Below, piece after piece: positions 29,322 to 50,323 of a stretch of 64,000 nucleotides of DNA. The notes beneath the pieces were generated by a model. The model saw only the letters and a list, made by a program, of their open reading frames with translations, ran no database searches and was not told where the DNA came from. How positions within the stretch are numbered: position 1 is the first letter of the stretch; every line of letters starts with the position of its first letter. The position numbers and the translations under genes are program-made. The stretch is from an uncultured bacterium (GTDB taxonomy: Bacteria > Bacillota_I > Bacilli_A > RFN20 > CAG-826), in assembly GCA_949285665.1 (NCBI GenBank), contig CASDYC010000001.1, forward strand, positions 325,376-389,375, written 5' to 3'.

Positions 29322-29365
29322 AAAAATTTTTTTTAAACTTTACAAAATACATTTAAATATTATTG

Positions 29366-30892
29366 ATGAAAGACGAATATTTTTATAATTTATACCAAAA
29401 AGATGGAACATACGAAACTTATTATTCTCTTTTTAAAAGTACGGCTAAATATTATGATAAAGTAACAAAAAAAGAAATGTATTTTAAAATAGTCAACTAT
29501 TTTAAAGAAGACCACGAACGAATATTGTATTTTTTAACTACTTCTTTAGTGAATTATTTAAAAAATTATGATAATAAAAAAGATAAAGAATTATCATCCA
29601 ATGATGATTTTATTAGATGCAAACTTTTTATAGAAGATTATATATACCAAGAAAAAAAAGAAATTTTAAATCCAGAATATGATTGGTTAATTTCATATAT
29701 TAAAAATAATTATTATAAAGCATTAGAAATTAGTGAATTTGTAGATTTTAATAAAGGTCTTCTTGATTTGTATGGAATTCTTACGAAAGAAGATATGTTT
29801 AAAATGTACAAAGATGCTTTCCCAGAATCAAAATTAAGTTTTAAAGAATACGATAAACAAATAACTAAATCTTATATTATTTTATTTGCGAATTATGGAA
29901 AAAAATATATCTATTATAAATGTATCGACAAACAATTTAATTTACGAAGGTATTTACAATCAATAAAAGATGCTTGCAAACATTATAATATTGTTGATTA
30001 TAAAAGATATTCTAAAGAACAAGTTCTTTCTTTTGCAAATAAATTTATGCTATTTCCAATAGAGATAGATGAGGATTCCTTTCAATTTTATTTAATATCT
30101 GATCATTCTCATTATTTTTCCTCACTTATGGATTTACCAGAACCAGATAGATTTTTTCAAGAAGAAAATGAAGATGAAAACGAAGATAAACTAAATGAGT
30201 ATTTACATATAAATTATAATACGCCTAAATGGCTATTAAAGGGTAATACGATTATCGACATAAAGGTATCTCAACATAATGATGAATTAGAAATTAATGA
30301 AGATATTAATGATGAAACAATATTTAAAGATAAAAATGAATATTTCAAATTTAAAAAATTAATTTGTGATTATTATGATTATTGTGCTAAAAAGATCATA
30401 CATAAAAAATTAAATCTTTATGATTTTGATAATGTCACAGGAAATGAAGAGGAAATAGTCGAACTTTTTGATAAAATAGCCGAAAAAAGCGATTATTATG
30501 TATCTTCGTTTATTAAAAGTGACGCAAGAATTTTAAATTATGATGATTATATTGTTTTAAATTCTTTAAGAGAATCAAGACGTTCATCTTATATAATTTT
30601 AGATATAAGCGAAGACGGTCTTATTCTTTTAGATTTTGAAAACGATGTACGTTTATTAGTAAAAGCTTTAGCGGTTCCATTTGTTGAATTATTCAAAACA
30701 AAAAATATATTAATTGATGTTACTTTAATTCCTTATAATGGAGTAATTACATACGATTCATTTTTACAACAAAACTTAATTGAAATGTCTCAAATTAATT
30801 TATCAAAAGATAAAATTGAAACTTATGATGAGTTGCAACTTTTGCAAACCGATGAAGAATTTTTAGAATTTTACAAAAATATTAAAAATTAA
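29366..30892 (+). CDS. Hypothetical 508-aa cytoplasmic protein next to tRNA-Ala
   Basis: Long intact ORF, very K/N/Y-rich, with no signal peptide or recognisable motif. The track start at 29363 is a TTG; the ATG is at 29366. Confidence 0.45.
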   Translation: MKDEYFYNLYQKDGTYETYYSLFKSTAKYYDKVTKKEMYFKIVNYFKEDHERILYFLTTSLVNYLKNYDNKKDKELSSNDDFIRCKLFIEDYIYQEKKEILNPEYDWLISYIKNNYYKALEISEFVDFNKGLLDLYGILTKEDMFKMYKDAFPESKLSFKEYDKQITKSYIILFANYGKKYIYYKCIDKQFNLRRYLQSIKDACKHYNIVDYKRYSKEQVLSFANKFMLFPIEIDEDSFQFYLISDHSHYFSSLMDLPEPDRFFQEENEDENEDKLNEYLHINYNTPKWLLKGNTIIDIKVSQHNDELEINEDINDETIFKDKNEYFKFKKLICDYYDYCAKKIIHKKLNLYDFDNVTGNEEEIVELFDKIAEKSDYYVSSFIKSDARILNYDDYIVLNSLRESRRSSYIILDISEDGLILLDFENDVRLLVKALAVPFVELFKTKNILIDVTLIPYNGVITYDSFLQQNLIEMSQINLSKDKIETYDELQLLQTDEEFLEFYKNIKN

Positions 30893-30902
30893 ACTATAAT
30901 TA

Positions 30903-31016
30903 TTAACTATAAATAAAAAAGAAAATCAAAAATAAAATTAAAAATGAAATAATTAAAAATATTCCAAAAATAATTAAATATTTCCACCAAGTCATCTTTT
31001 CAAAAAACTTTTTCAT
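30903..31016 (-). CDS. Putative 37-aa hydrophobic membrane peptide (MKKFFEKMTWWKYLIIFGIFLIISFLILFLIFFFIYS)
   Basis: Its ATG overlaps the TGA of the upstream 520-aa gene (ATGA). A single predicted TM helix. Below the ORF-track size cutoff. Confidence 0.3.
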   Translation of the reverse strand: MKKFFEKMTWWKYLIIFGIFLIISFLILFLIFFFIYS

Positions 31017-32575
31017 AAGTCAATTTTCCCATATGTCTCTTCATAATCAACATTTTTATCTAAATTTGGAATAATCATTTCTGGATTTTCACTTGGATCA
31101 TCATAATAAAAAGTTGAACTTCCATAACCTTTTGTTGGAACATTAGCACCAAATTTAGATTGTACTTCGTATTCTTCTCTTGTAATGTATTCAACAGGAT
31201 AAAAATCATTACTTAAAACCATTTTTAATCCAACTTTTGAAAAAATTGGAGCACCAACTTGTTGAATAATTGAAGAAGCACCCGGATAATCAGTTGTGCT
31301 TGTCATATATTTTGCATAATTATAAACACTACTTGGTGATAAGTTTAATGTCAAAATATAACCATCAGTAGTTTTTACAATTGCTGAATCAAATTTTTCA
31401 CCACAAATATCACTACTTTCATTTAACATATATGATGTATATAGTTGATAATTAATTAAATCAAATGGTTGAATTCCATAATCTAAAACATAATCACTGA
31501 TTGTAGTATCAACTTTTTGAGAATAATTAACGAAATCAGCTTTAAAATTACTTTCAACTTTATCACCATAAGAAAAATAAATTTCTAAATCATTATAATT
31601 ATCTTTATTTAAAATTCTTTGAGAATATTGAGCATTACTACTATATGAAATAACTTCTTTCATTAAATGATCATTATTTTTAATAAAACCAGTATTTGTA
31701 CTTTGAACATTTGTAATAAATGCAGCTGTTGATCGTGCTTCATTATAACTTTTAGCAAGATAATTTTCTTTTAAATTTTGAACTCTTAAAAAACTAATTC
31801 TTGCAAGATCAGCAATAGAAAACTTATTTAAAATTTCTTTGCTTGCTAAATTAATTTTTTCAATTTCACCATTATAATCATTTTCTAAAATTGATTGAAA
31901 TTCTGTATATTTATCATCTACAATCTCACCATCTTTTAAAAATTCTGGAAAAATCATTAAATCTTCACCATTTTCTGGTTTAAAAGTTCTAAAACTATAA
32001 CTTTCATCCTCATTATGGCAAAGAATAAATTCATTATTTATTAAAACTTTATTTAAATAATATCCATCGTATGGTTCAAATTCTAAATCAATTGTTCTAT
32101 AAGCGTGAACTTCTTTTTCTTCAAATTTTTCACCATTATAAAGTATTTTTGCTTCGCCGTTATATTCATTATCTTCTATATGAACGCTTACAAATTCATC
32201 TTTATCATAATCTTGAGAGCTAACTAATTTGTAAACTGGTTCAATTGTATTTTGACCTTCTTTTAAATTGAAATAAAAATACTTATCAGTATTTGGAATA
32301 TACTTTTGATCATTAATATTGACATAATCTAAAAAATATTTAGAACTTGATGAGGAAATTTTAAAGTCAATTTCTTGTCCAATTTCACCTTCATTTGAAC
32401 TTAGATTTATATCAAAATCATCATTTTCATTAATAACTAAAACCTTACATGGACTAATTTTACTAACTTCTTGTGGTTTTCGATACATAGTTCCAATAAA
32501 CCAGCCTGTAGTTCCACCAATTACAGTTCCTGCGAAAGCGGTTAATACACTAAAAATAATAGTTTCCTTTTTCAT
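31013..32575 (-). CDS. Hypothetical membrane-anchored extracytoplasmic protein (N-terminal TM/signal anchor)
   Basis: N-terminal hydrophobic helix (IIFSVLTAFAGTVIGGTTGWFIGTMY) followed by a 490-aa hydrophilic domain rich in Y/N/D/S. Confidence 0.5.
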   Translation of the reverse strand: MKKETIIFSVLTAFAGTVIGGTTGWFIGTMYRKPQEVSKISPCKVLVINENDDFDINLSSNEGEIGQEIDFKISSSSSKYFLDYVNINDQKYIPNTDKYFYFNLKEGQNTIEPVYKLVSSQDYDKDEFVSVHIEDNEYNGEAKILYNGEKFEEKEVHAYRTIDLEFEPYDGYYLNKVLINNEFILCHNEDESYSFRTFKPENGEDLMIFPEFLKDGEIVDDKYTEFQSILENDYNGEIEKINLASKEILNKFSIADLARISFLRVQNLKENYLAKSYNEARSTAAFITNVQSTNTGFIKNNDHLMKEVISYSSNAQYSQRILNKDNYNDLEIYFSYGDKVESNFKADFVNYSQKVDTTISDYVLDYGIQPFDLINYQLYTSYMLNESSDICGEKFDSAIVKTTDGYILTLNLSPSSVYNYAKYMTSTTDYPGASSIIQQVGAPIFSKVGLKMVLSNDFYPVEYITREEYEVQSKFGANVPTKGYGSSTFYYDDPSENPEMIIPNLDKNVDYEETYGKIDL

Positions 32576-32703: not shown

Positions 32704-32724
32704 GTTAGTGTTATGGAGGAAATT

Positions 32725-34698
32725 ATGAAAAATAAAAGAAATTTAGCTGTGTTGTTATTAACAGGAACAATGCTTTTAGGTGTAACATCATGCGGAGAAA
32801 CATCTTCTAGTTTAACAACACAAGGTGAAACTGACAAAAAATCAAGTATTGTAATATCAGATGGAATTGTTGGTGGAGAAGTTTCAGTTGTTGGCGATTT
32901 AACTGAAACAAATATTGGATCAGATATTACAATTACTGCTTTACCAGATTTTGGTTATGAATTATTAAACGTTACAGTTAACGGAAAAGTAATTGCTGGT
33001 ACATCTGACCAAACTTATTCTTATACAGTAGATAAAGAGATCACTCTAATTAATGCCAACTTTGAAAAAATTCAAGGAGAATCATTAGTCGAAATTAATG
33101 GCGATTCAAAAGTCGGAATTAATAAAACGATTCAATTAAGTGCTAATCTTTACGGAGCTGGAGGACAAGTAACTTGGGAATCGTCAAATAAAGAAAGAGC
33201 AACAGTTGATAAAAATGGTTTAGTTACTGGTATTAAAGCAGGATTTGTTCAAATTACAGCTACTTCTGTCTTAGATCCAGAAGCAACAGCAACTACTTCA
33301 GTATTTGTTATGCCAAAATATGTTGAAGATATGTTATCAACATTTGAAACTTATGATTATTCAAAAGGCGCAAATATTGCTGCTAGTATTGGTGTTCACT
33401 TAATGGGAAATGAAACACCAATGGCAATACCATTAAGTCTTGATTTACAATTTGATAAATCATTACAAGCTGCTGAATTATATAATAACTTAAAATTCCA
33501 TTTAAATATGGATCTATCAAATATTGGATTTATTTTAGGATTAGTTCCAAATGTTGGTGATTTATTAACTTCCGTTGGTCTTGATTGGAGCGTTGATTCA
33601 TTAAAAACTGCAACTAATGTAGATATTTATTCACTTCAACCAAACAAATTACAAACAACTGTTACAAGTAAATTAAATTCAACATTATATACATCAGAAT
33701 ATACAGAGGATTCTATTGGAAGATTGGCTGGAGAACTTGTTTTCTCGTTATTACCAACAATTTTAGGAATTTTACCATCTGATGGTAGTGATTCTTCAAC
33801 TAGTTTTGATTTAAATTCAATTCTTACTTTATTAGATTCAATTTTAATTTATGGAGAAAAAGCTGAAGATGGTATTTCTATATCTCCTATTATTATTGAA
33901 TTATTAAATACACAAATTTGGCCTTCTGTTTTAGATACTATTAAAACATCTGCAGGAGCAATGGGACCTTTAGCTTTAATGATGTTACCAGAAAGTATTA
34001 GTGAAGCAAGACTTATCTTTAATTATGATGAAAATAATAAATTTACAGGATTAAAATTAACAGTTAAAGGTTATTATTCTCACTCAGAAGATGAAAATCC
34101 AGAAGATTATAATAAGAGTTTTGTAACAATTACTTTAGATACACCAAAAGAAATGAGTAAAGATTTTGATACATTAGAAACAGAATTAAATCAAAAAATT
34201 GAAGAATATAATTCTGTACTTTCTTTAAAAAATGAATTTGCTGATGTTGAAAAATTTGTTGAAGACAATAAACTTTCTTCAACTTTTGAAAAAATTAAAA
34301 ATGAAGAATATATTGAAAAATTAACAAGTATTTGGCAAAGAGCTTATTCAAAAGAAGGATTATTTAGAGATACAACTGTAAGACCAATTGTTTCTTTAAA
34401 AATTATTGATCCTGAAACTCAAGCAGAAATGAGTGAAGATTTTACAATTTCTGCTGGAAAAACATATAACTACGAATTAACTTATTATGGTTTTCCAAGT
34501 GAAATTAATACAAATGAAATTACATTAAATTTCAAGAGTAACTATTTTAAATCAATTGACACGACAAATAAAACATTTACAACTGTTGATTCATTTGAAA
34601 ATGTCGATGAAAGTAATGTTACATTTACTGCAACATATACAACAAATACATCGTTTAAAATTGAAACTCCAACCTTTACATTTTTAACAGATTTATAA
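32725..34698 (+). CDS. Surface lipoprotein with a bacterial Ig-like (Big_2) domain
   Basis: Signal peptide plus lipobox LGVTSC. A Big_2-like segment (VTWESSNKERATVDKNGLVTGIKAGFVQITATS). The ORF-track start at 32713 is an RBS-embedded ATG. Confidence 0.7.
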   Translation: MKNKRNLAVLLLTGTMLLGVTSCGETSSSLTTQGETDKKSSIVISDGIVGGEVSVVGDLTETNIGSDITITALPDFGYELLNVTVNGKVIAGTSDQTYSYTVDKEITLINANFEKIQGESLVEINGDSKVGINKTIQLSANLYGAGGQVTWESSNKERATVDKNGLVTGIKAGFVQITATSVLDPEATATTSVFVMPKYVEDMLSTFETYDYSKGANIAASIGVHLMGNETPMAIPLSLDLQFDKSLQAAELYNNLKFHLNMDLSNIGFILGLVPNVGDLLTSVGLDWSVDSLKTATNVDIYSLQPNKLQTTVTSKLNSTLYTSEYTEDSIGRLAGELVFSLLPTILGILPSDGSDSSTSFDLNSILTLLDSILIYGEKAEDGISISPIIIELLNTQIWPSVLDTIKTSAGAMGPLALMMLPESISEARLIFNYDENNKFTGLKLTVKGYYSHSEDENPEDYNKSFVTITLDTPKEMSKDFDTLETELNQKIEEYNSVLSLKNEFADVEKFVEDNKLSSTFEKIKNEEYIEKLTSIWQRAYSKEGLFRDTTVRPIVSLKIIDPETQAEMSEDFTISAGKTYNYELTYYGFPSEINTNEITLNFKSNYFKSIDTTNKTFTTVDSFENVDESNVTFTATYTTNTSFKIETPTFTFLTDL

Positions 34699-34768: not shown

Positions 34769-36235
34769 TTAGTTCTTGTTTTTTAAATATAATTGACGAT
34801 ATTGTTCAAATTTCTTTTGATAAATAATATGATTTTTTAAATTAGGCATATAAATATCTTTATCATGAACTAATTCATCACACGCTTCTTTTAAATATTT
34901 ATATTGTTTATCGCCATACATCGCAAGAATAATAGCACCAAGGGCACCACCATCAGAGGTTGAAATAGTTTTAATTTTAATTCCAAAAATGTCAGCTAAT
35001 AATTGCATCCATTTTTTATTTCTACTACCTCCACCAATAACTCTTGCTTCTTTAAAGTCAAGATTTAAATCTTTCATAATTGAAAAAACATCATATAAAG
35101 AATAAGAAATTCCTTCAACTACGGCTTTTGTCATATCTCCTCTTTTATATATGGCATTTAAATTTGCAAACATACCTTTGGCATTTGGATCATTAATTGG
35201 GGATCTTTCACCCATTAAATATGGTAAAAATAAGATATCATTCATATTATTAATGTCAACATTTTCAAATTCATCATCATAATTTTTGATATTTAAAACA
35301 TCTTTAAACCACCAATTAAGTGATCCTGCACAAGATAATGTGCAACCCATTAATAAAAATTTACCATTTGCATGTCTAAAGCTATGGATTCTTCCTAATT
35401 TATCATATGCATAATTATCAATGCTTGAAAATACGACACCAGAAGTTCCAAGAGAAATAAATAAATCATCATTTGAAATTGTTGCTGTTCCAATTGCACC
35501 AACTGCTTGATCTCCACCCCCAATTACAACTTTAGTTTTATTTGATAAACCACTTAATTTAGCAAATTCATCACTGACATTTCCTATAACATCATATGAA
35601 TTATAAATTACAGGTAATTGACTAGGATTAATTCCTAAAATGTCTAGCATTTTAATTGAGTAAACATTATTTTTTACATCAAAAAATAATGTTCCACTTA
35701 AATCAGATACATCACTTGCAAAAACTCCAGAAATTTTATAAGCAAGATAATCTTTTGGAAGCATTATCTTATTTATTTTTTTGAAATTTTCTGGTTCATT
35801 TTTTCTAAGCCATAAAATTTTTGGTGCAGTAAAACCACAAAGTGCGATATTTGATGTATATTCAATTAATTTATTTACACCAATTACTTTATTTAGATAA
35901 TCAACTTCTTTAACAGTTCTTGAATCATTCCATAAAATTGCTGGTCTAATAACTTTATCATTTTCATCTAAAACAACTAAGCCGTGCATTTGACCACAAA
36001 ATGATAAGCTTGCAACTTTTGATAAATCTACTTCTTTATTTAATCTTTTTAATACATTAATTAAGGCATTATACCAATCATCAGGATTTTGTTCAGTCCA
36101 ATTTTCATTAGGCATTAAAAGAGGGTAAGATTCACTCTCACTTAAAAGAATCTTACCCTTATAATCAGAAATGCTAACTTTTATAGATGAAGTTCCAAGG
36201 TCAATACCTAAATAATACTTGTCTATATTTTGCAT
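34769..36235 (-). CDS. xylB: Xylulokinase (FGGY family)
   Basis: N-terminal YLGIDLGTSSIK and FGGY C-terminal motifs. Directly downstream of xylA. The ATG is at 36235; the track start at 36253 is a TTG. Confidence 0.8.
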   Translation of the reverse strand: MQNIDKYYLGIDLGTSSIKVSISDYKGKILLSESESYPLLMPNENWTEQNPDDWYNALINVLKRLNKEVDLSKVASLSFCGQMHGLVVLDENDKVIRPAILWNDSRTVKEVDYLNKVIGVNKLIEYTSNIALCGFTAPKILWLRKNEPENFKKINKIMLPKDYLAYKISGVFASDVSDLSGTLFFDVKNNVYSIKMLDILGINPSQLPVIYNSYDVIGNVSDEFAKLSGLSNKTKVVIGGGDQAVGAIGTATISNDDLFISLGTSGVVFSSIDNYAYDKLGRIHSFRHANGKFLLMGCTLSCAGSLNWWFKDVLNIKNYDDEFENVDINNMNDILFLPYLMGERSPINDPNAKGMFANLNAIYKRGDMTKAVVEGISYSLYDVFSIMKDLNLDFKEARVIGGGSRNKKWMQLLADIFGIKIKTISTSDGGALGAIILAMYGDKQYKYLKEACDELVHDKDIYMPNLKNHIIYQKKFEQYRQLYLKNKN

Positions 36236-36242
36236 TTTCTTA

Positions 36243-37556
36243 TTATTTTCCAAACATTACTTCGTTTACAATAGTTTCTAAGTATTCTTGTCGACCACTT
36301 TCAACATTTATTTCATTATTATTTAAAGCATATTCTGCTAATTCTTTAAAATCAGTTGTGCCATCGACAATCTTTTTACCAATACCAGATTTATAAGAAT
36401 CATATCTATGATTTACAAAATCATCAATTCTTCCATCTTCGATTAATTTATATGCTAATCTTAAACCTAAAGCAAATGTATCCATACCAGCAATGTATGC
36501 TAATAAAATATCTTCTAATGTATTAGATGGTCTTCTAGTTTTAGCATCAAAGTTTAAACCACCATTTGTAAATCCGCCAGCTTTAATAACTTCATACATT
36601 GCATATAAAGCATTGTATACATCTGTTGGGAATTGGTCAGTATCCCAACCTAATAAATAATCGCCTTGGTTTGCATCAATACTACAAAATACACCATTAT
36701 CTCGAGCGACTCTTAATTCGTGTTGGAAAGTATGACCAGCAAGTGTAGCATGGTTTGCTTCAATATTAAGTTTAAAATCACCTAATAAACCATAAGTTCT
36801 TAAGAAGTTACAACAAGTTGCACTATCAAAATCATATTGATGTTTTGTTGGTTCTTTTGGTTTTGGTTCTAATAAATAATCACCTTTAAATCCAACACTT
36901 CTTCCATAATCTCTAGCCATTTTGAAAAATCTAGCTAAATTATCTTGTTCTAATTTCATGTTTGTATTTAAAAGTGTTTCATAACCCTCTCTTCCACCCC
37001 AAAATACATAAGCGGTTCCGCCAAGTCTAACATCTGCATCAATACATGCTTTAACTTTTGCAGCAGCAAGTGCAAATACATCAGCATTTGGAGAAGTTGC
37101 AGCGCCATTCATAAATACTTTATCACCAAAGTTATTAGCTGTTGACCATAATAATTTTTGAGAATGAGTTTCTTGTTTTTTAGCAAGATAATCAACCATA
37201 TGATTAAAATTAGCTAAAGTTTCTTTAAAATCTTTACCTTGTGGAGCAATATCAACATCATGGAAACAATAATAATCAATTGATAATTTGTCCATTAAAT
37301 CAAAAGCTAAATCTGCTTTTGCTTCATAAATTTTCATTGGATCTGTTTGTCCAAAGTTTTTATCTTCAGTTGGTCCGCCAAACATATCAACGCCACAATA
37401 ATCCATTGTATGCCACCATGAAAGAGCAAATTTTAAATGTTCTCTCATTTTTTTACCAGAAATTACTTCATCAGGATTATAAAATTTAAAACTGAATGGT
37501 TCTTTGCTAGTAGGACCTAAATATTCTACTTTTTTAATATCTTTATAACTTTTCAT
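36243..37556 (-). CDS. xylA: Xylose isomerase (class II)
   Basis: 437 aa with conserved blocks ([21 protein letters not shown], catalytic His/Asp). Confidence 0.9.
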
Positions 37557-37601: not shown

Positions 37602-39638
37602 TTATTTTCTATTTTTCATGATGTTGTTTAATCTCTCATTTAATTTAGAATCGACAGCATCTTTTTCTTTTACAGCTTTTTCTTCTTCTTGCTTTTTAAG
37701 TTCAGCTTTTTCAGCTTTTAATTTTTCGTTTTCAGCAAGTTTTGTTTTTCTTAATTCTTCTTTTTCATGGTCTTTTTGAATTTGAATTACATATTGATCT
37801 TCTTTTTCTTTATCAACTTCTTGTTGTTTTAAAATTAATTCGTCCATTTTTGTTTGATAAATATTTAAATCAGATTTATATGTTTCTTCTAATTTTGCAC
37901 TTCTAACTTTAATATCTTCTTTTTCTTTATTAAATTTAGTAGTTTCTTTTTCAAATACATTATTTATTTTTATTTTTAAGCTTTCATCATCTGCATAATT
38001 TAAAGCAAAATTTTTTAAGTGTTCGATTTGCTTTAAGCTAACACCAAGTTCATTTTGAAGTTTAAGAATGAATTTCTTAGTTTCATATTCTTGTTTCATT
38101 TGATCAAGAATTAAATCTTTTTCATATGAATAATATAAATTTAATCTTGGTGCTACTTCTTCTTTTTTGTTTTTTAATAAATATGTATTATATTGTTTTA
38201 AGTTAAGTAATTTAGCTTTTTTATCATTAATTTCTTCATTTAATTTTTCATCCTTATCATGGACTTCACGATAAACTTTTGCTTTTTCAATTAAAACAAT
38301 ATATTTATTATTTAACTTCTTTAATATAGTTTCTTTTTGATCTAATAATTCATTAATCTTTTTAACAATTTCTTCCTCGCTTAATTTTGTTGAATGATTA
38401 ACTTTATTAATTTTATTTTCAAAATCTTTTTCAACTTTTTCAACTTTATTCTTATATTCTGCATCTAATAATAGATCTTTATTTGGTACATAAATAAGAT
38501 TGAATTTCTGTAAGAAATAAATTGCTTTATCTTTATCAAAATGTAAAACTTGAATTAAAATAGCAATAATTAAGATTGCACCTTTAATTGCATCATTTAA
38601 GAATGGGTTTAAATTTAAAGCAGAAATAATTTTATCAATTGTTTGGAAAGCGGCGATACCAAAGATAACACCAATAATACTACCTTTACCACCAGTCATT
38701 GCGATACCACCTAAGACAACAGCAGCGATTGCAGAAAGTTCATAAGAATTACCAGTTGAAGAAGTATCTAAGTTACCTCTTGAGGCAATATGTAAGAAAC
38801 CTGCAAATCCAACTAATGCACCAGCAATTGAAAATACAAGGGTTTTAATCCAATTAGATTTAATACCAACTAAGGTTGCAGCTTTTGGATTACTACCAAC
38901 AGCATAAATTTTTCTTCCAAATTTTGTATATTTAGTCATTAACCAAATTAATACAGCAACAAGAATAAATAAAATAGTTGGAAGGGTAATTGAAGCAAAT
39001 TGTACAGCACCTAATTCTCTAACCCAGTTATTTAATCCTGGTCCATAATTTAACATGTTTAAAATTGAACCATTAACCCAACTTGAAGTTTCAGCAGTTG
39101 TTCTTGTAACATCACCAATGTATTGAGCAAAGCTTCTAAAAATTAATGTTGTTGCAAGAGTAACGATGAATGATGGCATTTTAACAATACCAACAAAAAA
39201 TCCGTTAATAAATCCAAATAATAAACCAGTACCAATTGATACTAGTAAACACACAAAGAAGCCAAGAGCTGTGTTCCCAAGTGCGACAATTACGTTGTTA
39301 TATGCAATAATTGATATTGTAATCGATAAAGCATACATACTACCAACCGATAAATCGATCTCACCAAGAAGAACAATCAATCCCATACCTACGGCAACAA
39401 TTCCAATAAATATGGATGATGAGAAAATGTTTGTAAATAAATTCCAGTTAAAGTATCTAATGGTTGAAAGAATATAAATAACTAAAACTACTAAGAAAAT
39501 GTAAAGATAATTAGCTTTTGACCAGGTCTTTTTAAAGAAACCTTTTGTTGCTTTACCAAATTCTTTTCCAGTTATTCTTCTTTGGAATGTCTCGTTATTA
39601 CCATAAAAGGAATCAGTAATACTAAAAGGATTAGTCAT
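37602..39638 (-). CDS. CUT2-family sugar ABC transporter permease (XylH/RbsC-like) fused to a K/E-rich coiled-coil C-terminal tail of about 330 aa
   Basis: The N-terminal ~350 aa form a polytopic permease with an EAA-like loop region. Residues from ~350 to 678 are uninterrupted charged heptad-like sequence (EKVEKDFENKINK...KLKAEKAELKKQEEEK). Confidence 0.75.
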   Translation of the reverse strand: MTNPFSITDSFYGNNETFQRRITGKEFGKATKGFFKKTWSKANYLYIFLVVLVIYILSTIRYFNWNLFTNIFSSSIFIGIVAVGMGLIVLLGEIDLSVGSMYALSITISIIAYNNVIVALGNTALGFFVCLLVSIGTGLLFGFINGFFVGIVKMPSFIVTLATTLIFRSFAQYIGDVTRTTAETSSWVNGSILNMLNYGPGLNNWVRELGAVQFASITLPTILFILVAVLIWLMTKYTKFGRKIYAVGSNPKAATLVGIKSNWIKTLVFSIAGALVGFAGFLHIASRGNLDTSSTGNSYELSAIAAVVLGGIAMTGGKGSIIGVIFGIAAFQTIDKIISALNLNPFLNDAIKGAILIIAILIQVLHFDKDKAIYFLQKFNLIYVPNKDLLLDAEYKNKVEKVEKDFENKINKVNHSTKLSEEEIVKKINELLDQKETILKKLNNKYIVLIEKAKVYREVHDKDEKLNEEINDKKAKLLNLKQYNTYLLKNKKEEVAPRLNLYYSYEKDLILDQMKQEYETKKFILKLQNELGVSLKQIEHLKNFALNYADDESLKIKINNVFEKETTKFNKEKEDIKVRSAKLEETYKSDLNIYQTKMDELILKQQEVDKEKEDQYVIQIQKDHEKEELRKTKLAENEKLKAEKAELKKQEEEKAVKEKDAVDSKLNERLNNIMKNRK

Positions 39639-41228: not shown

Positions 41229-42314
41229 TTAGAATCCAAGATCGTAGAATTCATCAACGTTATCTTTATCAACTACATCAACTGGAACAACGTGATCATG
41301 ATTAGCAATCTTTGTACCATCTTTTAAATATGTAAGCATATCATCAATACCAGTTTTGATCATTGATGGTGGATATGTAACATCAAAGAAGTCAACATCT
41401 GCAACGTATCTATCAAATTCAGCTTGTCTTTCGTGTTGTCCTTTAATGACATCATACATTTCTTGTAAACCACTGGATGATGCAATAACTTCAACAGCTG
41501 TACCAAATGCTGTTTTTTCTTCTTCTGTTAAACCTGAATCTGGATTAACTAAAGCCTCAAGAATACCCATTGAACATTCTGAGTCATGTGTAAAGACACA
41601 TCTATAACCTGCTAATGTATTATCTTCAGCATAAGCAGCTTTTAACCAAGAAATGAAGTTTTGAGAAGCAGTTGCTCTTGACCAACCAGTACTTGGAGTT
41701 TGATCCCAAGCTGCTGTAATTTGTTCTTGTGTCCATCCAGCTTCTTTTAATGCTGTTTGGAAACCATCGTTTCTAGCAAGTGGAACTGATGAGTTATCAC
41801 CAGGAATAACTAAAATCTTATCTTGTCCTGCTGTTAAATCATAATGATCAATGAAATATTCAGCTGTTAATTCACCAATCATTTCGTTATTTCCACGAAC
41901 ATCACCAACCCAGTAGTCACTTTCTTTAATAATTGTGCTATCTGTAATGACTCTATCAACGACGACGAATGGAATATTAGCGTTTGCTAATGCTTCAACA
42001 CCTGGTTTAGCACTTGCGTCCCAAGGAAGTGTAACAACACCAGCAACAGTGTCTTTTCTTGCGACTAAGTCTTCCATTTGTTGATTCATTTCTTCTGAAT
42101 TACCAGAAGTTTGGACGACGAAGTTATATTCATAATCGCCACTTTCTTTTAATTCATTAGCATAGTCTCTAGCGTTACTTAAAATAGCACCAGTCCAACC
42201 ATGGTCAGCACTTGGAACTAAGATAACTAAATCTTTTTCGCCGCCACCACATGAAGCTAATCCGACAACCATTGCAGCAACTGCTAATGTGCCAAATAAT
42301 TTTGTTTTTTTCAT
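41229..42314 (-). CDS. Sugar ABC transporter substrate-binding lipoprotein (type-I periplasmic binding fold, XylF/RbsB-like)
   Basis: Lipobox LASCGG. Composition rich in A/G/D/T, unlike neighbouring proteins. Sits before the ATPase and permease genes. Confidence 0.75.
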   Translation of the reverse strand: MKKTKLFGTLAVAAMVVGLASCGGGEKDLVILVPSADHGWTGAILSNARDYANELKESGDYEYNFVVQTSGNSEEMNQQMEDLVARKDTVAGVVTLPWDASAKPGVEALANANIPFVVVDRVITDSTIIKESDYWVGDVRGNNEMIGELTAEYFIDHYDLTAGQDKILVIPGDNSSVPLARNDGFQTALKEAGWTQEQITAAWDQTPSTGWSRATASQNFISWLKAAYAEDNTLAGYRCVFTHDSECSMGILEALVNPDSGLTEEEKTAFGTAVEVIASSSGLQEMYDVIKGQHERQAEFDRYVADVDFFDVTYPPSMIKTGIDDMLTYLKDGTKIANHDHVVPVDVVDKDNVDEFYDLGF

Positions 42315-42389: not shown

Positions 42390-43538
42390 TTAATATTCAA
42401 CCCAAGTTCCCTTTTTAGCACTTTCAACCGCTTTATGGATAAATTTAACTCCATCAACACCATTTGAAACGTTTTGGAAATCTAGGTCTGCTTTTGTTAA
42501 TGTTTCACCATTTTTCTTCTTTAAAATTGTTGTGATAACATTACGATATATATTTGCAAAGGCAATTGTTAAACCTTCTGGATGTCCAACTGGAAGTCTT
42601 GATAAATTACCAGCATCATATTGTTTACTAACAGCTGAACCTCTAATCATAATTTGAGTTGCTCCATCAACTGGAGTGTAATGTAAGTAATCAGGATATT
42701 CTTGATTCCATTCAATTGCACCTTTGTCACCAAATACTCTAATAACTAAACCATTATAATGACCTAATGCAACTTGTGAACACCAAAGAGCTGCTCTAAC
42801 TCCACTATCATATTCAATGATCATATTTGAATTAAGATCAAGAGCCATGCCATAAGTATCAGTTGTTGCGATTAATCTTTTAATTTCAAATCCAGTTAAA
42901 TAGTGAACTAAATTTTCAGCATGTGTTCCAATATCGCCGATACAATTTGAAATTCCAGAATATTTTGGATCGCTTCTCCATACACTTAATGTTGTTGCTT
43001 TTTGATTCTTTGGATCAAGAGAAGAAACTAACCAGTCTTGAACATATTCAACATTGATTGAAACAATTTTTCCAATTTTTCCTTTTTCAATCATTTCTTT
43101 TGCAACTTTAACCATTGTATAACCAGTATATGTATAAGTAATTGCAAATACTAAGTTTCTTTCTTTAGCTATTTTTTCTAATTCAACAGCTTCTTCTTGT
43201 GTAAAACACAATGGTTTTTCACAAACAACATTAATATCATGAAGTAAAAATTCTTTAGCGATTTGATAATGTAAGAAATTTGGAGTACAAATTGATACAA
43301 AATCAATTTTATCTTCTCTTTGAGATTCTTTTTCAGCCATCTCTTTGTAATCTTTGTATGTTCTTGAAGGATCAACATTATAAGCTTCAGCTGTTTCTTT
43401 ACCTAGTTTTTCATCTGCTGAGAAACATCCAGCAACTAATTTTGCTCTTGTATCAAAATTAATAGCTTTTCTGTGAACTTCACCGATGAAAGCTTTTAAG
43501 TCTCCACCAACCATTCCATATCTTAATTGTTTAACCAT
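42390..43538 (-). CDS. Gfo/Idh/MocA-family NAD(P)-dependent oxidoreductase
   Basis: Rossmann fold near the N-terminus, a CEKP motif, and a C-terminal alpha/beta domain with a YVQDW/GDIGTH-type pattern. 382 aa. Confidence 0.8.
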   Translation of the reverse strand: MVKQLRYGMVGGDLKAFIGEVHRKAINFDTRAKLVAGCFSADEKLGKETAEAYNVDPSRTYKDYKEMAEKESQREDKIDFVSICTPNFLHYQIAKEFLLHDINVVCEKPLCFTQEEAVELEKIAKERNLVFAITYTYTGYTMVKVAKEMIEKGKIGKIVSINVEYVQDWLVSSLDPKNQKATTLSVWRSDPKYSGISNCIGDIGTHAENLVHYLTGFEIKRLIATTDTYGMALDLNSNMIIEYDSGVRAALWCSQVALGHYNGLVIRVFGDKGAIEWNQEYPDYLHYTPVDGATQIMIRGSAVSKQYDAGNLSRLPVGHPEGLTIAFANIYRNVITTILKKKNGETLTKADLDFQNVSNGVDGVKFIHKAVESAKKGTWVEY

Positions 43539-43577: not shown

Positions 43578-44576
43578 TTATTTTGTGTTTGAAATTGCAT
43601 CATCAAATTTTACGTTTGATGGTTCAAAGTCAACTTTTCTAACAAATGCACAAGCTTCAGTAGCACCAGAAATTCTTTCCATACCACTATCTTCCCATTC
43701 AACGGAGAGATTTCCATAATAATTATGTGCATTTAATACTCTAATAATTTCTTCAAAGTTTACATCACCATGACCAAGTGATCTAAAGTTCCAACCTCTT
43801 CTTAAATCACCAAAATCAATGTGTGAACCTAATAAACCAGTTCTTCCATCTAATCTGACTGCTGCGTCTTTCATGTGGATGTTATAAACTCTGTCAGCAA
43901 AATCATTTAAATAAACATGAGGGGTAACACCTTGCCATAATAAATGAGATGGATCAAATGTTAAACCAAATTCTGGTCTATCTTTAAATGTTTCAAGAAT
44001 ACGTTTTGCACTGTAATAGTCAAATGCAATTTCACCTGGGTGAACTTCTAATGCAAATTTAACCCCATTTTCTTTAAATACATCTAAAATTGGTAACCAA
44101 TCTTCTCTAACTTTTTTAAAACCTGCTTCAACCATTTCTTCTGGTGTTTGTGGGAAGCTATATAAATATCTCCAAATTGGTGAACCAGTAAATCCAGAAA
44201 TAACTTTAACACCTAATTTTTTAGCAACAACTGCTGCTTTTTTCATTGATTCAACAGCCCATGCGTGAATTTTTTCATGATCATTTGCACAACTTGCTGG
44301 TGCAAAATTATTTAATCTTGGATCATCTAAATCACTAACACATTGTCCAATAATATGTGTTGCAAGAACTGGTACAACTAAATCATATTTTTTTAGTGTA
44401 TCTTTAATAAATTTAATGTAATTTTCATCTTCGTATGCTTTATCTAAATCAAAAGCATTTCCCCAAACTGCTAACTCTAGACCATCATAGCCCATTTGTT
44501 TTGCGGTTTTACAAAGTTCTTCAAATGGTAAATCTGACCATTGACATGTAACTAAAGTAACTAATCTTTTTCCCAT
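43578..44576 (-). CDS. Xylose-isomerase-like TIM-barrel protein (sugar phosphate isomerase/epimerase, AP_endonuc_2 family)
   Basis: Metal-ligand pattern typical of the family (ALEVHPGE, HMKD, E...D). 332 aa. Confidence 0.75.
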   Translation of the reverse strand: MGKRLVTLVTCQWSDLPFEELCKTAKQMGYDGLELAVWGNAFDLDKAYEDENYIKFIKDTLKKYDLVVPVLATHIIGQCVSDLDDPRLNNFAPASCANDHEKIHAWAVESMKKAAVVAKKLGVKVISGFTGSPIWRYLYSFPQTPEEMVEAGFKKVREDWLPILDVFKENGVKFALEVHPGEIAFDYYSAKRILETFKDRPEFGLTFDPSHLLWQGVTPHVYLNDFADRVYNIHMKDAAVRLDGRTGLLGSHIDFGDLRRGWNFRSLGHGDVNFEEIIRVLNAHNYYGNLSVEWEDSGMERISGATEACAFVRKVDFEPSNVKFDDAISNTK

Positions 44577-44600: not shown

Positions 44601-45620
44601 TTAGTTATGTTGTGGAATAATACTTTCTTTTAGATAAATATTATTCTCATAAATTTTATCTTTAACATTACTTTCTTTAATTAAGTAATTAAATGCATTT
44701 TCAACTGATTTTAAACCTTGTGAGAATGCGTGTTGAGTTATTGTTGCAATAACTAAACCAGATTTTAATCCATCAACTACTTCTTTTGATTGGTCAACGG
44801 TAATAACATTTAAATCTTTATGTTTAGTCTCTTTTAATGCTTTTAATCCACCATTAATGCCGGCACCTAAATAACAAACAGCATCAACTTTTTTGGTATT
44901 AATTAGTTGTTTTGTAATATCGTAAGAAATTTGATCATTATCAAAATTTTCTTTAATAGTAGTTACTTTAATATTCTTATTTAGTACAGTTCTAAGACCT
45001 CTTAATCTCTCAATTTGACCAGAGTGTTCTAAACTTCCTAAAATAACAGCTATTTCTTTTTCTTCTTTTCTAAATAATACGTTGTAAATGTTTGCAGCTA
45101 GTGCACCGCAATTAAAATAATCACATCCAATAAAGCAAACTTTATTATTAACATCCAAATCAATATTAACAGCAATTTTTGGACATTGAAGTTCATTAAT
45201 TTTTTCACAAACTTTTGGATTATTTGGAGCCGTAACAATTAAAAAATCTAAATTTTCAGATTTTAATTCATCAACAGCTTTATATATTGTTTCAAAATTT
45301 AATAACTCAACTTCTTTAATAATAAATGTTAAACCATAGTCTTCATATTTTAAGATTCCATTTTTAATTCCATGTAAGACAAGATTAAAGAAATCATTAT
45401 TAATAGTTCCAATTATCACTCCGATATTAATGTTTCTTTTAGATGCAAGTCTTTTGGCGATAAAAGATTTTTCATAACCAGTGTCATGAATTACTTTTCT
45501 AATTCTTGCTTCGACATCTTTTTTAACTTTTCCTCTGTTGTTAATAACTCTATCAACAGTCCCTCTTGATGTTTGTGCCAATCTTGCAATCTCTTTAATT
45601 GTGACTTTTTGCTTTTCCAT
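44601..45620 (-). CDS. LacI-family transcriptional regulator, probably leaderless
   Basis: N-terminal HTH (VTIKEIARLAQTSRGTVDRVINN) and a C-terminal periplasmic-binding-protein-like sugar-binding domain. The ATG at 45620 lies 6 nt after a TATAAT with no SD. The track start at 45695 is a GTG inside the terminator hairpin. Confidence 0.75.
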   Translation of the reverse strand: MEKQKVTIKEIARLAQTSRGTVDRVINNRGKVKKDVEARIRKVIHDTGYEKSFIAKRLASKRNINIGVIIGTINNDFFNLVLHGIKNGILKYEDYGLTFIIKEVELLNFETIYKAVDELKSENLDFLIVTAPNNPKVCEKINELQCPKIAVNIDLDVNNKVCFIGCDYFNCGALAANIYNVLFRKEEKEIAVILGSLEHSGQIERLRGLRTVLNKNIKVTTIKENFDNDQISYDITKQLINTKKVDAVCYLGAGINGGLKALKETKHKDLNVITVDQSKEVVDGLKSGLVIATITQHAFSQGLKSVENAFNYLIKESNVKDKIYENNIYLKESIIPQHN

Positions 45621-45626
45621 ACAAGT

Positions 45627-45655
45627 ATTATAAATAAAAATGTAAACGCTTACAA
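45627..45655 (-). promoter_or_regulatory. Promoter (TTGTAA, 17 nt, TATAAT) for the LacI gene, overlapped by a cre-like palindrome
   Basis: Hexamers read on the minus strand; the -10 ends 6 nt before the ATG. Confidence 0.5.
45641..45654. promoter_or_regulatory. cre-like / LacI-family operator TGTAAACGCTTACA
   Basis: Matches the CcpA cre consensus TGWAANCGNTNWCA at every position. 13 of 14 positions are palindromic. Confidence 0.6.
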
Positions 45656-45660
45656 GAAAA

Positions 45661-45699
45661 ATGTGTGCGAGAACACAATTTTTTTGTTTTCGCACACAT
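45661..45699 (-). terminator. Rho-independent terminator after tRNA-Arg and polC
   Basis: 16/15-bp inverted repeat (ATGTGTGCGAGAACACAA ... TTGTTTTCGCACACAT) followed on the minus strand by TTTTTCTTG. Confidence 0.7.
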
Positions 45700-48800: not shown

Positions 48801-50323
48801 TTATCATCAAGCATTTCTTGCGTAATATTAGTAAGTTGGGTCGTAAATTTTGAAATTTTAATTCCAGGATTTATTAAAATATCTTTTCTTTCAATAACTA
48901 ATCCATTTTTAATTTTAACAGCACCAAATTCAATAATTTTATCAAACTGGATTGATAATCCGGTTGTTTCAAGGTCAAATACAACGTATGTTTCATTTTC
49001 TAATAAGTTATTATTAGGGTTAAAACATCCTTTAAAATAATCTTCAACCATATAGACTTCGCAACCATATAAAATTTTAATTCCATATTTCTTAGATGCT
49101 TTTTGTGCAGCTGGAAAAGCTTGAACTACACCATGATCTGTTAAAGCAATGGCTTTATGTCCCATATTTTTGGCAGTTTGACAAAATTCATCTATTGTAT
49201 TAACAGCATCCATTGCAGACATTTTTGTATGAAGATGAAGTTCAACTCTTTTTTCTCCTTCATATTTATCTTCTCTTAACGGATAATTTCCATCGACTAC
49301 TAAAGAGTTAACCCTAATTACAATTGCATTATTATTAAATTTATTTATTCTAGTAAAACCAGTAAATCTTATATGATTTTTATATTTTAATGATTCTAAA
49401 AATTCTTCGCTAAAATTTTTACCAACATTAATTTCAATATATTTTGATTCTTCATTATCGTTAACTAAAATTGTATAAATTTTATTTCCTCTAATTTCTC
49501 TATCTTTAATAGAATATATATAACCAGAAGACATTACAGCCATTTTTTCTTGTTTAATATCTTTTAAACTTAGAGGAATATAATTTCTACTAGTATCTAA
49601 TCCTTCAAATAATTTTTCATGAATTTTTAATTGATTACTAATATATTCTTCGCTTTCTTTTGTAATTTCTTTATCATAATTTTCAAGAATATCATTAGAA
49701 AATTCACTAACTTCTTCTTCACTATCTGTGTACTCTTGACTTAATTCTTCTTCATTTTGGTATTCTTGTTGATAATAATCACTTAAATCTTGTTCATAAA
49801 ATGAATCTTCTTCATTTTCAAAAGAATTGTCATCTAATTCATTGTCATTATTATTAGTTTGATTATTTTCATTTAAAATTAAGTCTTCATCATTTTTTTT
49901 ATTTAAAATAATATTAATTTTTGGATAATTAATAAAATCTAATAAAGAATTAAAATCATTAATTCTATTATTAAATTCTTTAATTTTATCATTTGGAATA
50001 TTTTCAATAACTAAATTATTGTCTAAAAAATTAATGCTAATATTATCTTTAATATCTTCAATAAAATCTTTTAATAAAATTAAAATATCATCATTTGAAA
50101 TTTTATTATTATACGAAAACGATAATTGATATTTATAATTTGTAATATTATTTAATTTATCAATAAAATAGTTTAATAAATCTAAATCCCATTTTGAATT
50201 TTTTTGTATATAAAAACAAAAAGTACCAGTTAAATCTTTACTGGTTTTTACAATATCAAAATCAAAATCTTCAAGATTGTCAATTTGAATTGAATTCAAA
50301 AATCTTTTTGTTACATCTCTCAT
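45824..50323 (-). CDS. polC: DNA polymerase III alpha subunit, PolC type (PHP, OB, 3'-5' exonuclease and polymerase domains)
   Basis: 1499 aa with an exonuclease motif (FDLETTGL) and the PolC zinc-finger region (CPNCKH...CPKCGH). Confidence 0.95.
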   Translation of the reverse strand: MRDVTKRFLNSIQIDNLEDFDFDIVKTSKDLTGTFCFYIQKNSKWDLDLLNYFIDKLNNITNYKYQLSFSYNNKISNDDILILLKDFIEDIKDNISINFLDNNLVIENIPNDKIKEFNNRINDFNSLLDFINYPKINIILNKKNDEDLILNENNQTNNNDNELDDNSFENEEDSFYEQDLSDYYQQEYQNEEELSQEYTDSEEEVSEFSNDILENYDKEITKESEEYISNQLKIHEKLFEGLDTSRNYIPLSLKDIKQEKMAVMSSGYIYSIKDREIRGNKIYTILVNDNEESKYIEINVGKNFSEEFLESLKYKNHIRFTGFTRINKFNNNAIVIRVNSLVVDGNYPLREDKYEGEKRVELHLHTKMSAMDAVNTIDEFCQTAKNMGHKAIALTDHGVVQAFPAAQKASKKYGIKILYGCEVYMVEDYFKGCFNPNNNLLENETYVVFDLETTGLSIQFDKIIEFGAVKIKNGLVIERKDILINPGIKISKFTTQLTNITQEMLDDKPKINEVIDEIMKFIDGCVLVSHNLEFDFGFLNKALQDCKNEDLKNVGVDTLALSRFLNPEYTGHSLGNVCHRYKIEYKKTSAHRADYDAEVLSKAWSVFLDKLNKMGYKHFNQLEKLEKSQAHYKLSSEMHVNVLCKNAKGLKDLYKIVSDAHIKYLGRYPTVPRSLLEKYRDNLILGSACFNGEVFQSSMLLSKEKLKKAISFYDFIEIQPHTNYEFLINVHTIDDDERLNLILNNIIKEANNQNKLIVATGDVHYLNPEDKIFRDVYVYSAGVGKTAHPLYTDKRIRMEEKNIYFDNPDQYFRSTDEMLKEFEKYSSENAYNWVIKNTNLIADMCEEIYPIKDKLYTPTIENCENLLREICYNTAHNLYGDPLPKLNEERLEKELNGIISNGYAVIYYIAHKIIKKTHEDDYIVGSRGSVGSSFVATMANITEVNPLPPHYRCPNCKHFELYEGSEYFSGYDLPTKKCPKCGHVMVGDGQNIPFETFLGFNADKVPDIDLNFPPDYQSRAHEYTKVLLGEQNVFRAGTISTVADKSAFGYAKGYFEKRYKLDKNSVVDIVGQEKLDFLSVGCKDVKKTTGQHPGGIAVIPKEFDVYDFTPIQFPADDITATWKTTHFEYEAIHDNVLKLDLLGHVDPQALKFLRDISGVKLEDIPLNDKLALSIFSSPDALKLQHNYLQLKNGALGIPEFGTEFVRGMLDETKPKDFASLLIISGLSHGENVWRNNAQNLISSNICDIRGVIGCRDDIMTVLIGKYHMDPRMSFNIMEKVRKKDKTLSEEDEKEMRAHGVPDYFIESCKKIRYLFPKAHATAYVTMAVRVAYFKVHYPLEFYAGFFSVRCDKFDWNAMYKGPEAIIKRMNELNEMRKANSKEYTKVDEEIEKTLIVALEMYDRGFKFSNIDLYKSDAVNFVMDKQNNALIPPFKVIDGLGDAASESIIEARNEKKFVSIEDFSKRSKITQTQISIFKELGVLKDLPEKEREQMSLFDFF

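Follow-up and report, generated by a model that had tools for sequence, protein, structure and literature searches.

ATP-binding cassette (ABC) sugar importers of the CUT2 type, such as RbsABC, XylFGH, AraFGH, MglABC and GguAB, are built from a permease with a BPD_transp_2 domain, one ATPase of about 500 amino acids (aa) that carries two nucleotide-binding domains (NBDs) in tandem, and a Peripla_BP_4 binding protein, all encoded in a sugar-catabolic operon. The known CUT2 permeases have about 320-400 aa and end shortly after their last transmembrane (TM) helix. In this work we have analysed a stretch of 64,000 nucleotides (nt) from contig CASDYC010000001.1 of an uncultured bacterium, hereafter the window, in which an operon with these same attributes encodes a permease (open reading frame, ORF, 37602-39638, minus strand) that adds to this plan a C-terminal tail of 312 residues, predicted to be cytoplasmic. 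We have found no description in the literature of CUT2 permeases with such a tail, which on the evidence presented here is a conserved but accessory part of the protein.

Extra cytoplasmic domains have been described in other transporters. The known regulatory domains of ABC importers sit on the ATPase, below the transporter, where they modulate the transport cycle (PMC10710835). The regulatory domain of MalK, the C2 domain of MetN and ModC are comparable to the tail in that they supply an extra cytoplasmic domain, and we would assign the same role to the tail; however, they are fused to the NBD, are beta-rich for the most part and recognise ligands or partner proteins, whereas the tail is all-helical and placed on the membrane subunit. 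Furthermore, no kinship between the tail and these NBD-borne domains was found by Pfam, PDB sequence or Foldseek searches. A second likeness is to the osmolyte transporters ProP and BetP, in which the last TM helix is likewise followed by a charged helical extension in the cytoplasm, and the C-terminal domain of ProP forms an antiparallel coiled coil (PMC10710835). These are MFS and BCCT systems with extensions roughly six-fold shorter, in contrast to the ABC transporter for a catabolic sugar considered here, and neither Pfam nor PDB sequence searches detected any sequence kinship of the tail to the ProP C-terminal domain. Finally, the CUT2 permeases P0074, P0085 and P0094 of the Mollicutes Spiroplasma sp. 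SV19, Mycoplasmopsis agassizii and Mycoplasma iguanae have a K/Q/N-rich extension of about 260 aa that resembles the tail in being charged, apparently helical and attached to a terminus on the cytoplasmic side. The permease family is the same and the lineages are related, reduced and AT-rich, but this extension is located at the N-terminus and not at the C-terminus. Homology between both kinds of extension was rejected (hhalign probability 1.5%, and the Mollicute extensions are not matched by the hidden Markov model of the tail), so at best they may represent convergent accretion in reduced AT-rich lineages.

Extent and composition of the tail

The permease gene, read directly in the sequence, is a single uninterrupted frame of 678 aa. 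A sequence-only reading of the window had described its product as a CUT2-type ABC permease with an abnormally long, charged and helical cytoplasmic C-terminal tail, and this description is borne out. Pfam covers only residues 69-359 of the protein (PF02653, E=8.5e-39, profile positions 3-268 of 269). Together with this BPD_transp_2 domain, the operon contains the two further elements that characterise CUT2 importers, an ATPase of about 500 aa with two NBDs and a cluster-B sugar-binding protein. On these sequence features the ORF is assigned as the permease subunit of a CUT2 ABC sugar importer (TC 3.A.1.2), and it is the only permease gene in the operon. The permease does not reach any of the NCBIfam equivalog cut-offs (GguB, 157 bits vs 450; AraH, 145 vs 378; MglC, 141 vs 386; RbsC, 125 vs 398), the XylH model not being among those listed.

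The tail comprises residues 367-678 (window positions 37605-38540). It is long, as had been claimed, but its measured length is about 305-312 aa and not the approximately 330 aa given at first. Lysine (20%), glutamate (14.5%), leucine (12.5%) and asparagine (9%) are its main residues, and with 69 K+R against 65 D+E in 312 aa it is nearly neutral but densely charged, to the point that it holds the most charged 80-aa stretch (0.53 KEDR) among the window ORFs of at least 150 aa. The tail lacks any hydrophobic segment, in agreement with the sequence-only reading: the highest mean Kyte-Doolittle value over 19 residues is 0.28, compared with more than 1.9 in the membrane helices. By contrast, the idea that the tail is an uninterrupted heptad-like sequence did not stand. 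The a/d heptad score of the single tail sequence is only z=2.1 above shuffles and exceeds 0.6 in just 2% of the scored segments, the helices are broken at P385, P497, G532 and around residues 547-551, and hydrophobic residues represent 32-37% of most of the tail, as in a folded helical bundle. Residues 621-665 alone are almost purely K/E, with 13% hydrophobic residues.

A charged stretch was also noted in another protein of the window, a site-2 protease of 705 aa (Peptidase_M50, RseP-like; 50320-52437, minus strand). Here the 221-position Pfam profile is spread over residues 10-691, which implies a very large insertion that includes a charged stretch near residues 83-163 (0.46 KEDR).

Conservation and distribution of the tail

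The same fused ORF is found in metagenome-assembled genomes (MAGs) of uncultured Bacilli at 92% (L001), 62% (L002) and 52-53% identity (L004 and L005), and also in Candidatus Alectryobacillus merdavium (L003), in which it is cut by the end of the contig. The fused ORF is retained within the same operon by five independent MAGs, with continuous frames and identical synteny, and the frame is likewise kept in the assemblies L001, L002, L004, L005, L017 and L018. A frameshift artefact, for which the sequence-only reading had proposed a check, is refuted by this continuity. The more distant tailed members P0018 (37%) and P0007 (43%) are also located within clusters that encode a LacI-family regulator, a TIM-barrel protein, a Gfo/Idh/MocA oxidoreductase, a substrate-binding protein (SBP), an ATPase and the permease.

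About 35 clusters of homologues, defined at 90% identity, were retrieved by a protein search; they have 610-680 aa and align with 86-100% of the query. We also built a profile from 18 tails and carried out an exhaustive HMMER search with it against 1.84 billion representative proteins. This search matched only 15 representative clusters (at 50% identity), all of them with E of at most 1e-10, and every match that was inspected proved to be a tailed CUT2 permease or an apparent fragment of one; none of the matches was a clearly stand-alone tail, another kind of host protein or a Mollicute protein. Pfam searches of the query and all 18 aligned tails with E up to 10 did not point to any consistent family, and PDB sequence searches that used either the single tail or the tail profile gave only noise (a 71-aa 'Competence protein' with E=0.08 and Nop58 with E=0.02), while those with the membrane domain gave no matches. 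According to these searches the tail defines a small subfamily of CUT2 permeases, as it was found nowhere else, and the claim that it is unusual for an importer is well founded. The opposite possibility, that such tails are a common feature of the permease family, is true only in a restricted sense: the tail is the rule in this narrow subfamily, but CUT2 permeases in general lack it, and so do some close orthologues. The tail can be aligned between members that share no more than 32-35% identity over the whole protein and 18-25% in the tail itself, and judging from this alignment it is old.

Selection along the tail was analysed by computing dN/dS, the ratio of nonsynonymous to synonymous substitution rates, for the window gene against its homologue in L001. 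The value for the whole tail is 0.23, and in terms of substitution rates the tail is thus shown to be real and under purifying selection. Three parts can be told apart in the tail by their conservation, dN/dS and variation in length. The first one, proximal to the membrane, includes a short helix, a loop with PNKD, a helix of 28 aa and the first portion of another of 75 aa, with the pattern LQKxxLxYxPNKDLxLE...LLDExE...KYxxLIxxAK. For residues 371-465 dN/dS is 0.034, compared with 0.055 in the membrane domain, and by this measure the proximal part of about 100 aa is as constrained as the membrane domain itself. The second part is variable, with a dN/dS of 0.32 in residues 466-560 and of 0.50 in residues 561-678 (a bin that includes the rest of this middle part), and family members differ in the total length of the tail, from 163 to 311 aa. 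Its nearly pure K/E helix, residues 621-665, has 14 K+R and 14 D+E, this is 28 charged residues of 45. The third part is a short C-terminal motif, RLxxI(I/L)KxRK, which is found in long-tailed and short-tailed members. In the tail alignment Y446 and A453 are invariant, and L391, L431, L432, I450 and L670 are nearly so.

Tail-less and short-tailed relatives

The sequence-only reading had recommended a search for orthologues with and without tails, and both kinds were found. The tail-less orthologue P0037 has 387 aa and ends 41 residues past the membrane domain. It is encoded within an identical operon (LacI regulator, TIM barrel, oxidoreductase, SBP, ATPase, permease, XylA and XylB), in which xylA starts 32 nt after the P0037 stop codon. 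Because a tail-less orthologue occupies the identical operon, this comparison indicates that the tail is accessory, that is, dispensable in an orthologous operon, and that it is not required for transport as such. When the membrane domains were compared by neighbour joining, the group of P0037 joined the tailed clade B in 99.5% of 200 bootstraps, and the split that would unite all tailed proteins had 0% support. This placement implies at least one loss of the tail or its transfer between clades. Furthermore, there is a short-tailed variant of 519 aa that retains the proximal module, and we consider it real because 14 cluster members share this length. The C-terminus of the short-tailed P0022 matches the C-terminal motif only approximately, while those of the related short-tailed P0021 and P0024 match it clearly.

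The operon of the tail-less P0041 (L021 6464-7984) is different in other respects, since its tandem-NBD ATPase is split into two genes (247 and 252 aa) and a fucose-isomerase-like protein, not XylA, is encoded downstream of the kinase.

Predicted structure and topology

Ten TM helices were found in the membrane domain, with 15 K+R in the predicted inside loops and only 1 outside, and its model matched the type II importers HI1470/1, BtuC and PsaC (2nq2, 2qi9, 1l7v and 7kyp) with a Foldseek probability of 1.00 and TMt values of 0.48-0.55. The termini of BtuC and of type II importers are cytoplasmic. The ten TM helices, the 15:1 positive-inside bias and the type II importer fold therefore predict that the tail is located in the cytoplasm.

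The AlphaFold2 (AF2) model of the full-length protein has a predicted local distance difference test score (pLDDT) of 79, and the tail is helical in it at 80-92 except for the last helix (57-74); residues 621-665 are predicted as helical within that lower range. When the tail was modelled alone the pLDDT was 91.7 and the predicted template modelling score (pTM) 0.70, and the model shows a short N-terminal helix followed by six helices of 28, 75, 31, 12, 60 and 65 residues. These models predict that the tail is a helical bundle that folds back on itself and not a single long rod or a continuous coiled coil. At the family level all five long helices are amphipathic with a period of 3.5-3.75, and in four of them this periodicity reaches nominal significance (permutation p<0.05). 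The hydrophobic period is exactly 3.50 in the central helix of 75 residues and 3.6-3.75 in the others. Foldseek comparison of the tail model with the PDB retrieved only generic long-helix proteins (E of at least 0.59, TM-score of at most 0.30), and the weak, non-significant neighbours include spectrin repeats, BAR/F-BAR domains and SMC coiled coils.

Base composition and host

It had been proposed that the tail arose or expanded within its AT-rich host, on the basis of a GC content of about 25% in the tail and 40% in the membrane part. The GC content of the tail is certainly lower, although the measured values are 21.0% and 30.8%, respectively, with 25.1% for the whole window, and at 19-21% the tail is the lowest of the region. 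This gap is found mainly at codon position 2 (0.125 in the tail against 0.387 in the membrane part) and is therefore due to the K/E/N/I/L amino-acid composition. The same gap is present in every AT-rich homologue. In the 52%-GC locus L018, however, a homologous tail of 271 aa is kept with 50.4% GC, against 52.3% in the membrane part. An origin in an AT-rich host fails because this homologue keeps the tail, and the gap at codon position 2 and the age of the tail also speak against it; as far as the comparison of these sequences goes, the tail is not a by-product of an AT-rich genome or of host base composition.

The window reads in the standard code, with ORFs of up to 1499 aa under table 11. 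Candidatus Alectryobacillus is placed in GTDB order RFN20, family CAG-826 (PMC8035907). A prediction of peptidoglycan deficiency has been made for CAG-826, and Mycoplasmatales are relatives of RFN20 (PMC10868615). The host is an uncultured, AT-rich and probably wall-less member of the RFN20-type gut Bacilli.

The xylose operon and neighbouring genes

The coordinates of the permease, of its parts and of the other operon genes are collected in Table 1. The start of the permease gene overlaps the stop of the ATPase gene by 8 nt, and the length of the ATPase is ordinary for a CUT2 system. The substrate is presumed to be the monosaccharide xylose on the basis of the operon context, as XylA and XylB are encoded downstream. 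The upstream order of LacI regulator, TIM barrel and oxidoreductase is conserved in L017, L018, L020 and L021, and XylA and XylB follow directly in most family members but are not always adjacent. Since the upstream trio is constant while XylA and XylB are not always adjacent, the substrate may not be free xylose; gene order would also be compatible with a xyloside, or with a sugar that needs an oxidation and an isomerisation step.

Table 1. Position of the permease, its segments and the genes of the operon in the window
Feature	Position	Strand	Basis or remarks
Complete permease-plus-tail coding sequence	37602..39638	-	678 aa + stop codon at 37602-37604
N-terminal cytoplasmic segment, residues 1-43	39510..39638	-	AF2 secondary structure, positive-inside count, alignment
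10-helix membrane domain, BPD_transp_2/CUT2 type, residues 44-366	38541..39509	-	Pfam PF02653, Foldseek fold
Membrane-proximal conserved module, residues 367-465	38244..38540	-	Alignment, dN/dS, retention in short-tailed variants
Variable middle, amphipathic helices, residues 466-620	37779..38243	-	AF2 helices, dN/dS, length variation
Nearly pure K/E helix, ER/K single-alpha-helix-like, residues 621-665	37644..37778	-	Composition, AF2
Conserved C-terminal amphipathic basic motif, residues 666-678	37605..37643	-	Alignment; L..RL..I(I/L/M)K.RK
Tandem-NBD ABC ATPase, permease partner, 499 aa	39631..41130	-	Two Pfam ABC_tran matches; NCBIfam AraG/AlsA/XylG-like
Lipoprotein substrate-binding protein, Peripla_BP_4, lipobox LASC	41229..42314	-	Pfam; upstream of ATPase
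Gfo/Idh/MocA oxidoreductase	42390-43538	-	NCBIfam; conserved upstream operon gene
Xylose-isomerase-like TIM barrel (AP_endonuc_2)	43578-44576	-	NCBIfam; conserved upstream operon gene
LacI-family regulator	44601-45695	-	NCBIfam; conserved upstream operon gene
Xylose isomerase XylA	36243-37556	-	Downstream; NCBIfam TIGR02630, 671.8 bits vs cutoff 533
Xylulokinase XylB	34769-36253	-	Downstream; NCBIfam TIGR01312, 528.5 bits vs cutoff 380

The first 43 residues of the permease are basic (8 K/R) and conserved within clade A of the tailed family, and AF2 predicts a beta-hairpin at residues 6-21. The sequence of this predicted hairpin, NPFxxxDxYFKNGExFxR (permease residues 1-21; 39576-39638, minus strand), is found in clade A and is missing from clade B and from the tail-less relatives. 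The hairpin may pack against the tail or the ATPase.

The GTG start listed for the LacI-family regulator is probably too far upstream, as the family match begins near residues 26-30, where there is an internal Met, and the orthologues have 336-345 aa. Convergent to the xylose operon and beside it there is a lipoprotein of 661 aa with Big_2 and InlB B-repeat-like domains (32713-34698, plus strand). Two further ORFs of about 510-520 aa (29363-30892, plus strand, and 31013-32575, minus strand) matched no Pfam family at E of at most 1e-4, and the second of them starts with a hydrophobic helix.

Discussion

We propose that the protein is the single membrane subunit of a CUT2-type importer in a xylose-utilisation operon, to which an all-helical domain of about 312 residues is fused in frame. 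This domain is laid out as a constrained proximal module, followed by a variable helical spacer that goes from amphipathic to ER/K-like and by a short basic C-terminal motif. CUT2 permeases act as dimers; because of this architecture and of the single permease gene, each transporter would have two tails next to its tandem-NBD ATPase. Putative contacts of the proximal module and the C-terminal motif with the ATPase or the coupling region, or with each other across the dimer, would stabilise or gate the transporter complex, with the spacer setting the reach of the tail. We give about an even chance to the tail being an accessory docking or regulatory domain that acts in cis beside the ATPase, in a transporter whose translocation step itself would not need it.

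Several observations weigh against this proposal. The distal half of the tail evolves fast (dN/dS 0.32-0.50), the conserved columns are mostly hydrophobic core positions, and no ligand-binding or catalytic site is evident among them. The packing of the helices, moreover, is deduced from the pTM and the helix lengths of predicted models, and AF2 in monomer mode can render a genuine intermolecular coiled coil as a chain folded onto itself. Finally, a role that has nothing to do with the ATPase, either weakly beneficial or specific to the lineage, would also be compatible with the loss of the tail among close orthologues.

The first alternative is that the tails form intermolecular coiled coils, either to oligomerise or cluster importers or to build a cytoskeleton-like or BAR-like membrane scaffold in wall-less cells. 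We consider this unlikely but worth weighing. Long amphipathic helices, one of them of 75 residues with the exact 3.50 periodicity, are what it would require, the weak Foldseek neighbours belong to the spectrin, BAR/F-BAR and SMC type, peptidoglycan deficiency is predicted for the related family CAG-826 (PMC8035907, PMC10868615), and a comparable charged helical extension is present at the opposite cytoplasmic end of the Mollicute permeases. However, all the Foldseek matches are non-significant, the heptad signal of the single sequence is weak, the hydrophobic faces are already satisfied in the AF2 monomer (pTM 0.70) and the tail is restricted to one transporter family and is no general scaffold protein.

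A broader version of this idea would make the tail a previously undescribed domain, be it a sensory or gating domain that responds to ionic strength, crowding or the membrane, or a scaffold between transporters, which would throttle or localise sugar uptake in wall-less gut Bacilli and would be convergent with the N-terminal extensions of the Mollicutes. We regard it as a rather doubtful proposition. Its sensory form taken separately, in which the charged tail would sense ionic strength, crowding or osmotic state and gate sugar import like the C-terminal domains of ProP and BetP or the charged regions of OpuA, appears improbable to us. Such a device could be useful to a wall-less cell, and the lineage is predicted to be wall-less (PMC10868615). 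The dense but almost balanced charge of the tail suits it, the basic amphipathic C-terminal motif could bind anionic lipid, and the C-terminal helical domains of ProP and BetP switch between a membrane-bound and a coiled-coil state (PMC10710835). Nevertheless, the substrate is a catabolic sugar and not an osmolyte, given that XylA and XylB in the operon score above the curated cut-offs, the tail has no homology to any osmosensory domain and its length is about six times that of the ProP coiled coil.

It could also be thought that the tail is a docking platform for XylA, XylB, the Gfo/MocA oxidoreductase or the TIM-barrel protein, so that transport and metabolism would be coupled in a metabolon. 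The strictly conserved order from the LacI regulator to the permease, and the direct succession of XylA and XylB in most members, would agree with this, but the tail-less orthologue is accompanied by the same enzymes and P0007 keeps its tail though xylAB are not adjacent, which makes this option quite improbable. The chances are slimmer still for the tail being neutral low-complexity sequence, expanded without function by AT-biased drift in a reduced genome. The low GC content of the tail, the fast evolution and variable length of its distal half and its loss or absence in close orthologues are the expected signs of such drift; however, selection and conservation largely refute it, as dN/dS falls to 0.034 in the proximal third, the motifs are conserved among very divergent members, the predicted fold is confident, the tail is kept at 50% GC in a 52%-GC genome, the GC deficit reflects amino-acid composition and no other ORF of the window has a comparable stretch. 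That the tail is an artefact, a separate downstream gene fused by a frameshift or an assembly error, or else extracellular, has nothing more than its unusual length in its favour and can practically be discarded in view of the frame kept in independent assemblies, of tail-only matches that look like fragments of tailed permeases with no clearly stand-alone tail gene among them, and of the ten TM helices and charge bias that put the C-terminus in the cytoplasm.

Apparently, no CUT2 importer has been described before in which the membrane subunit bears a large, conserved and folded domain in the cytoplasm. Should the tail be only a weakly selected structural add-on, it would still show clearly how a domain can be gained and lost while the rest of an operon stays invariant. 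A role in gating, stabilising or localising the transporter would make it a new regulatory architecture, and were it a sensor or scaffold convergent with the extensions of the Mollicutes, it would point to a general solution for importer regulation in wall-less cells. A functional tail of this kind would moreover offer a handle on the physiology of the uncultured, probably wall-less RFN20 gut Bacilli.

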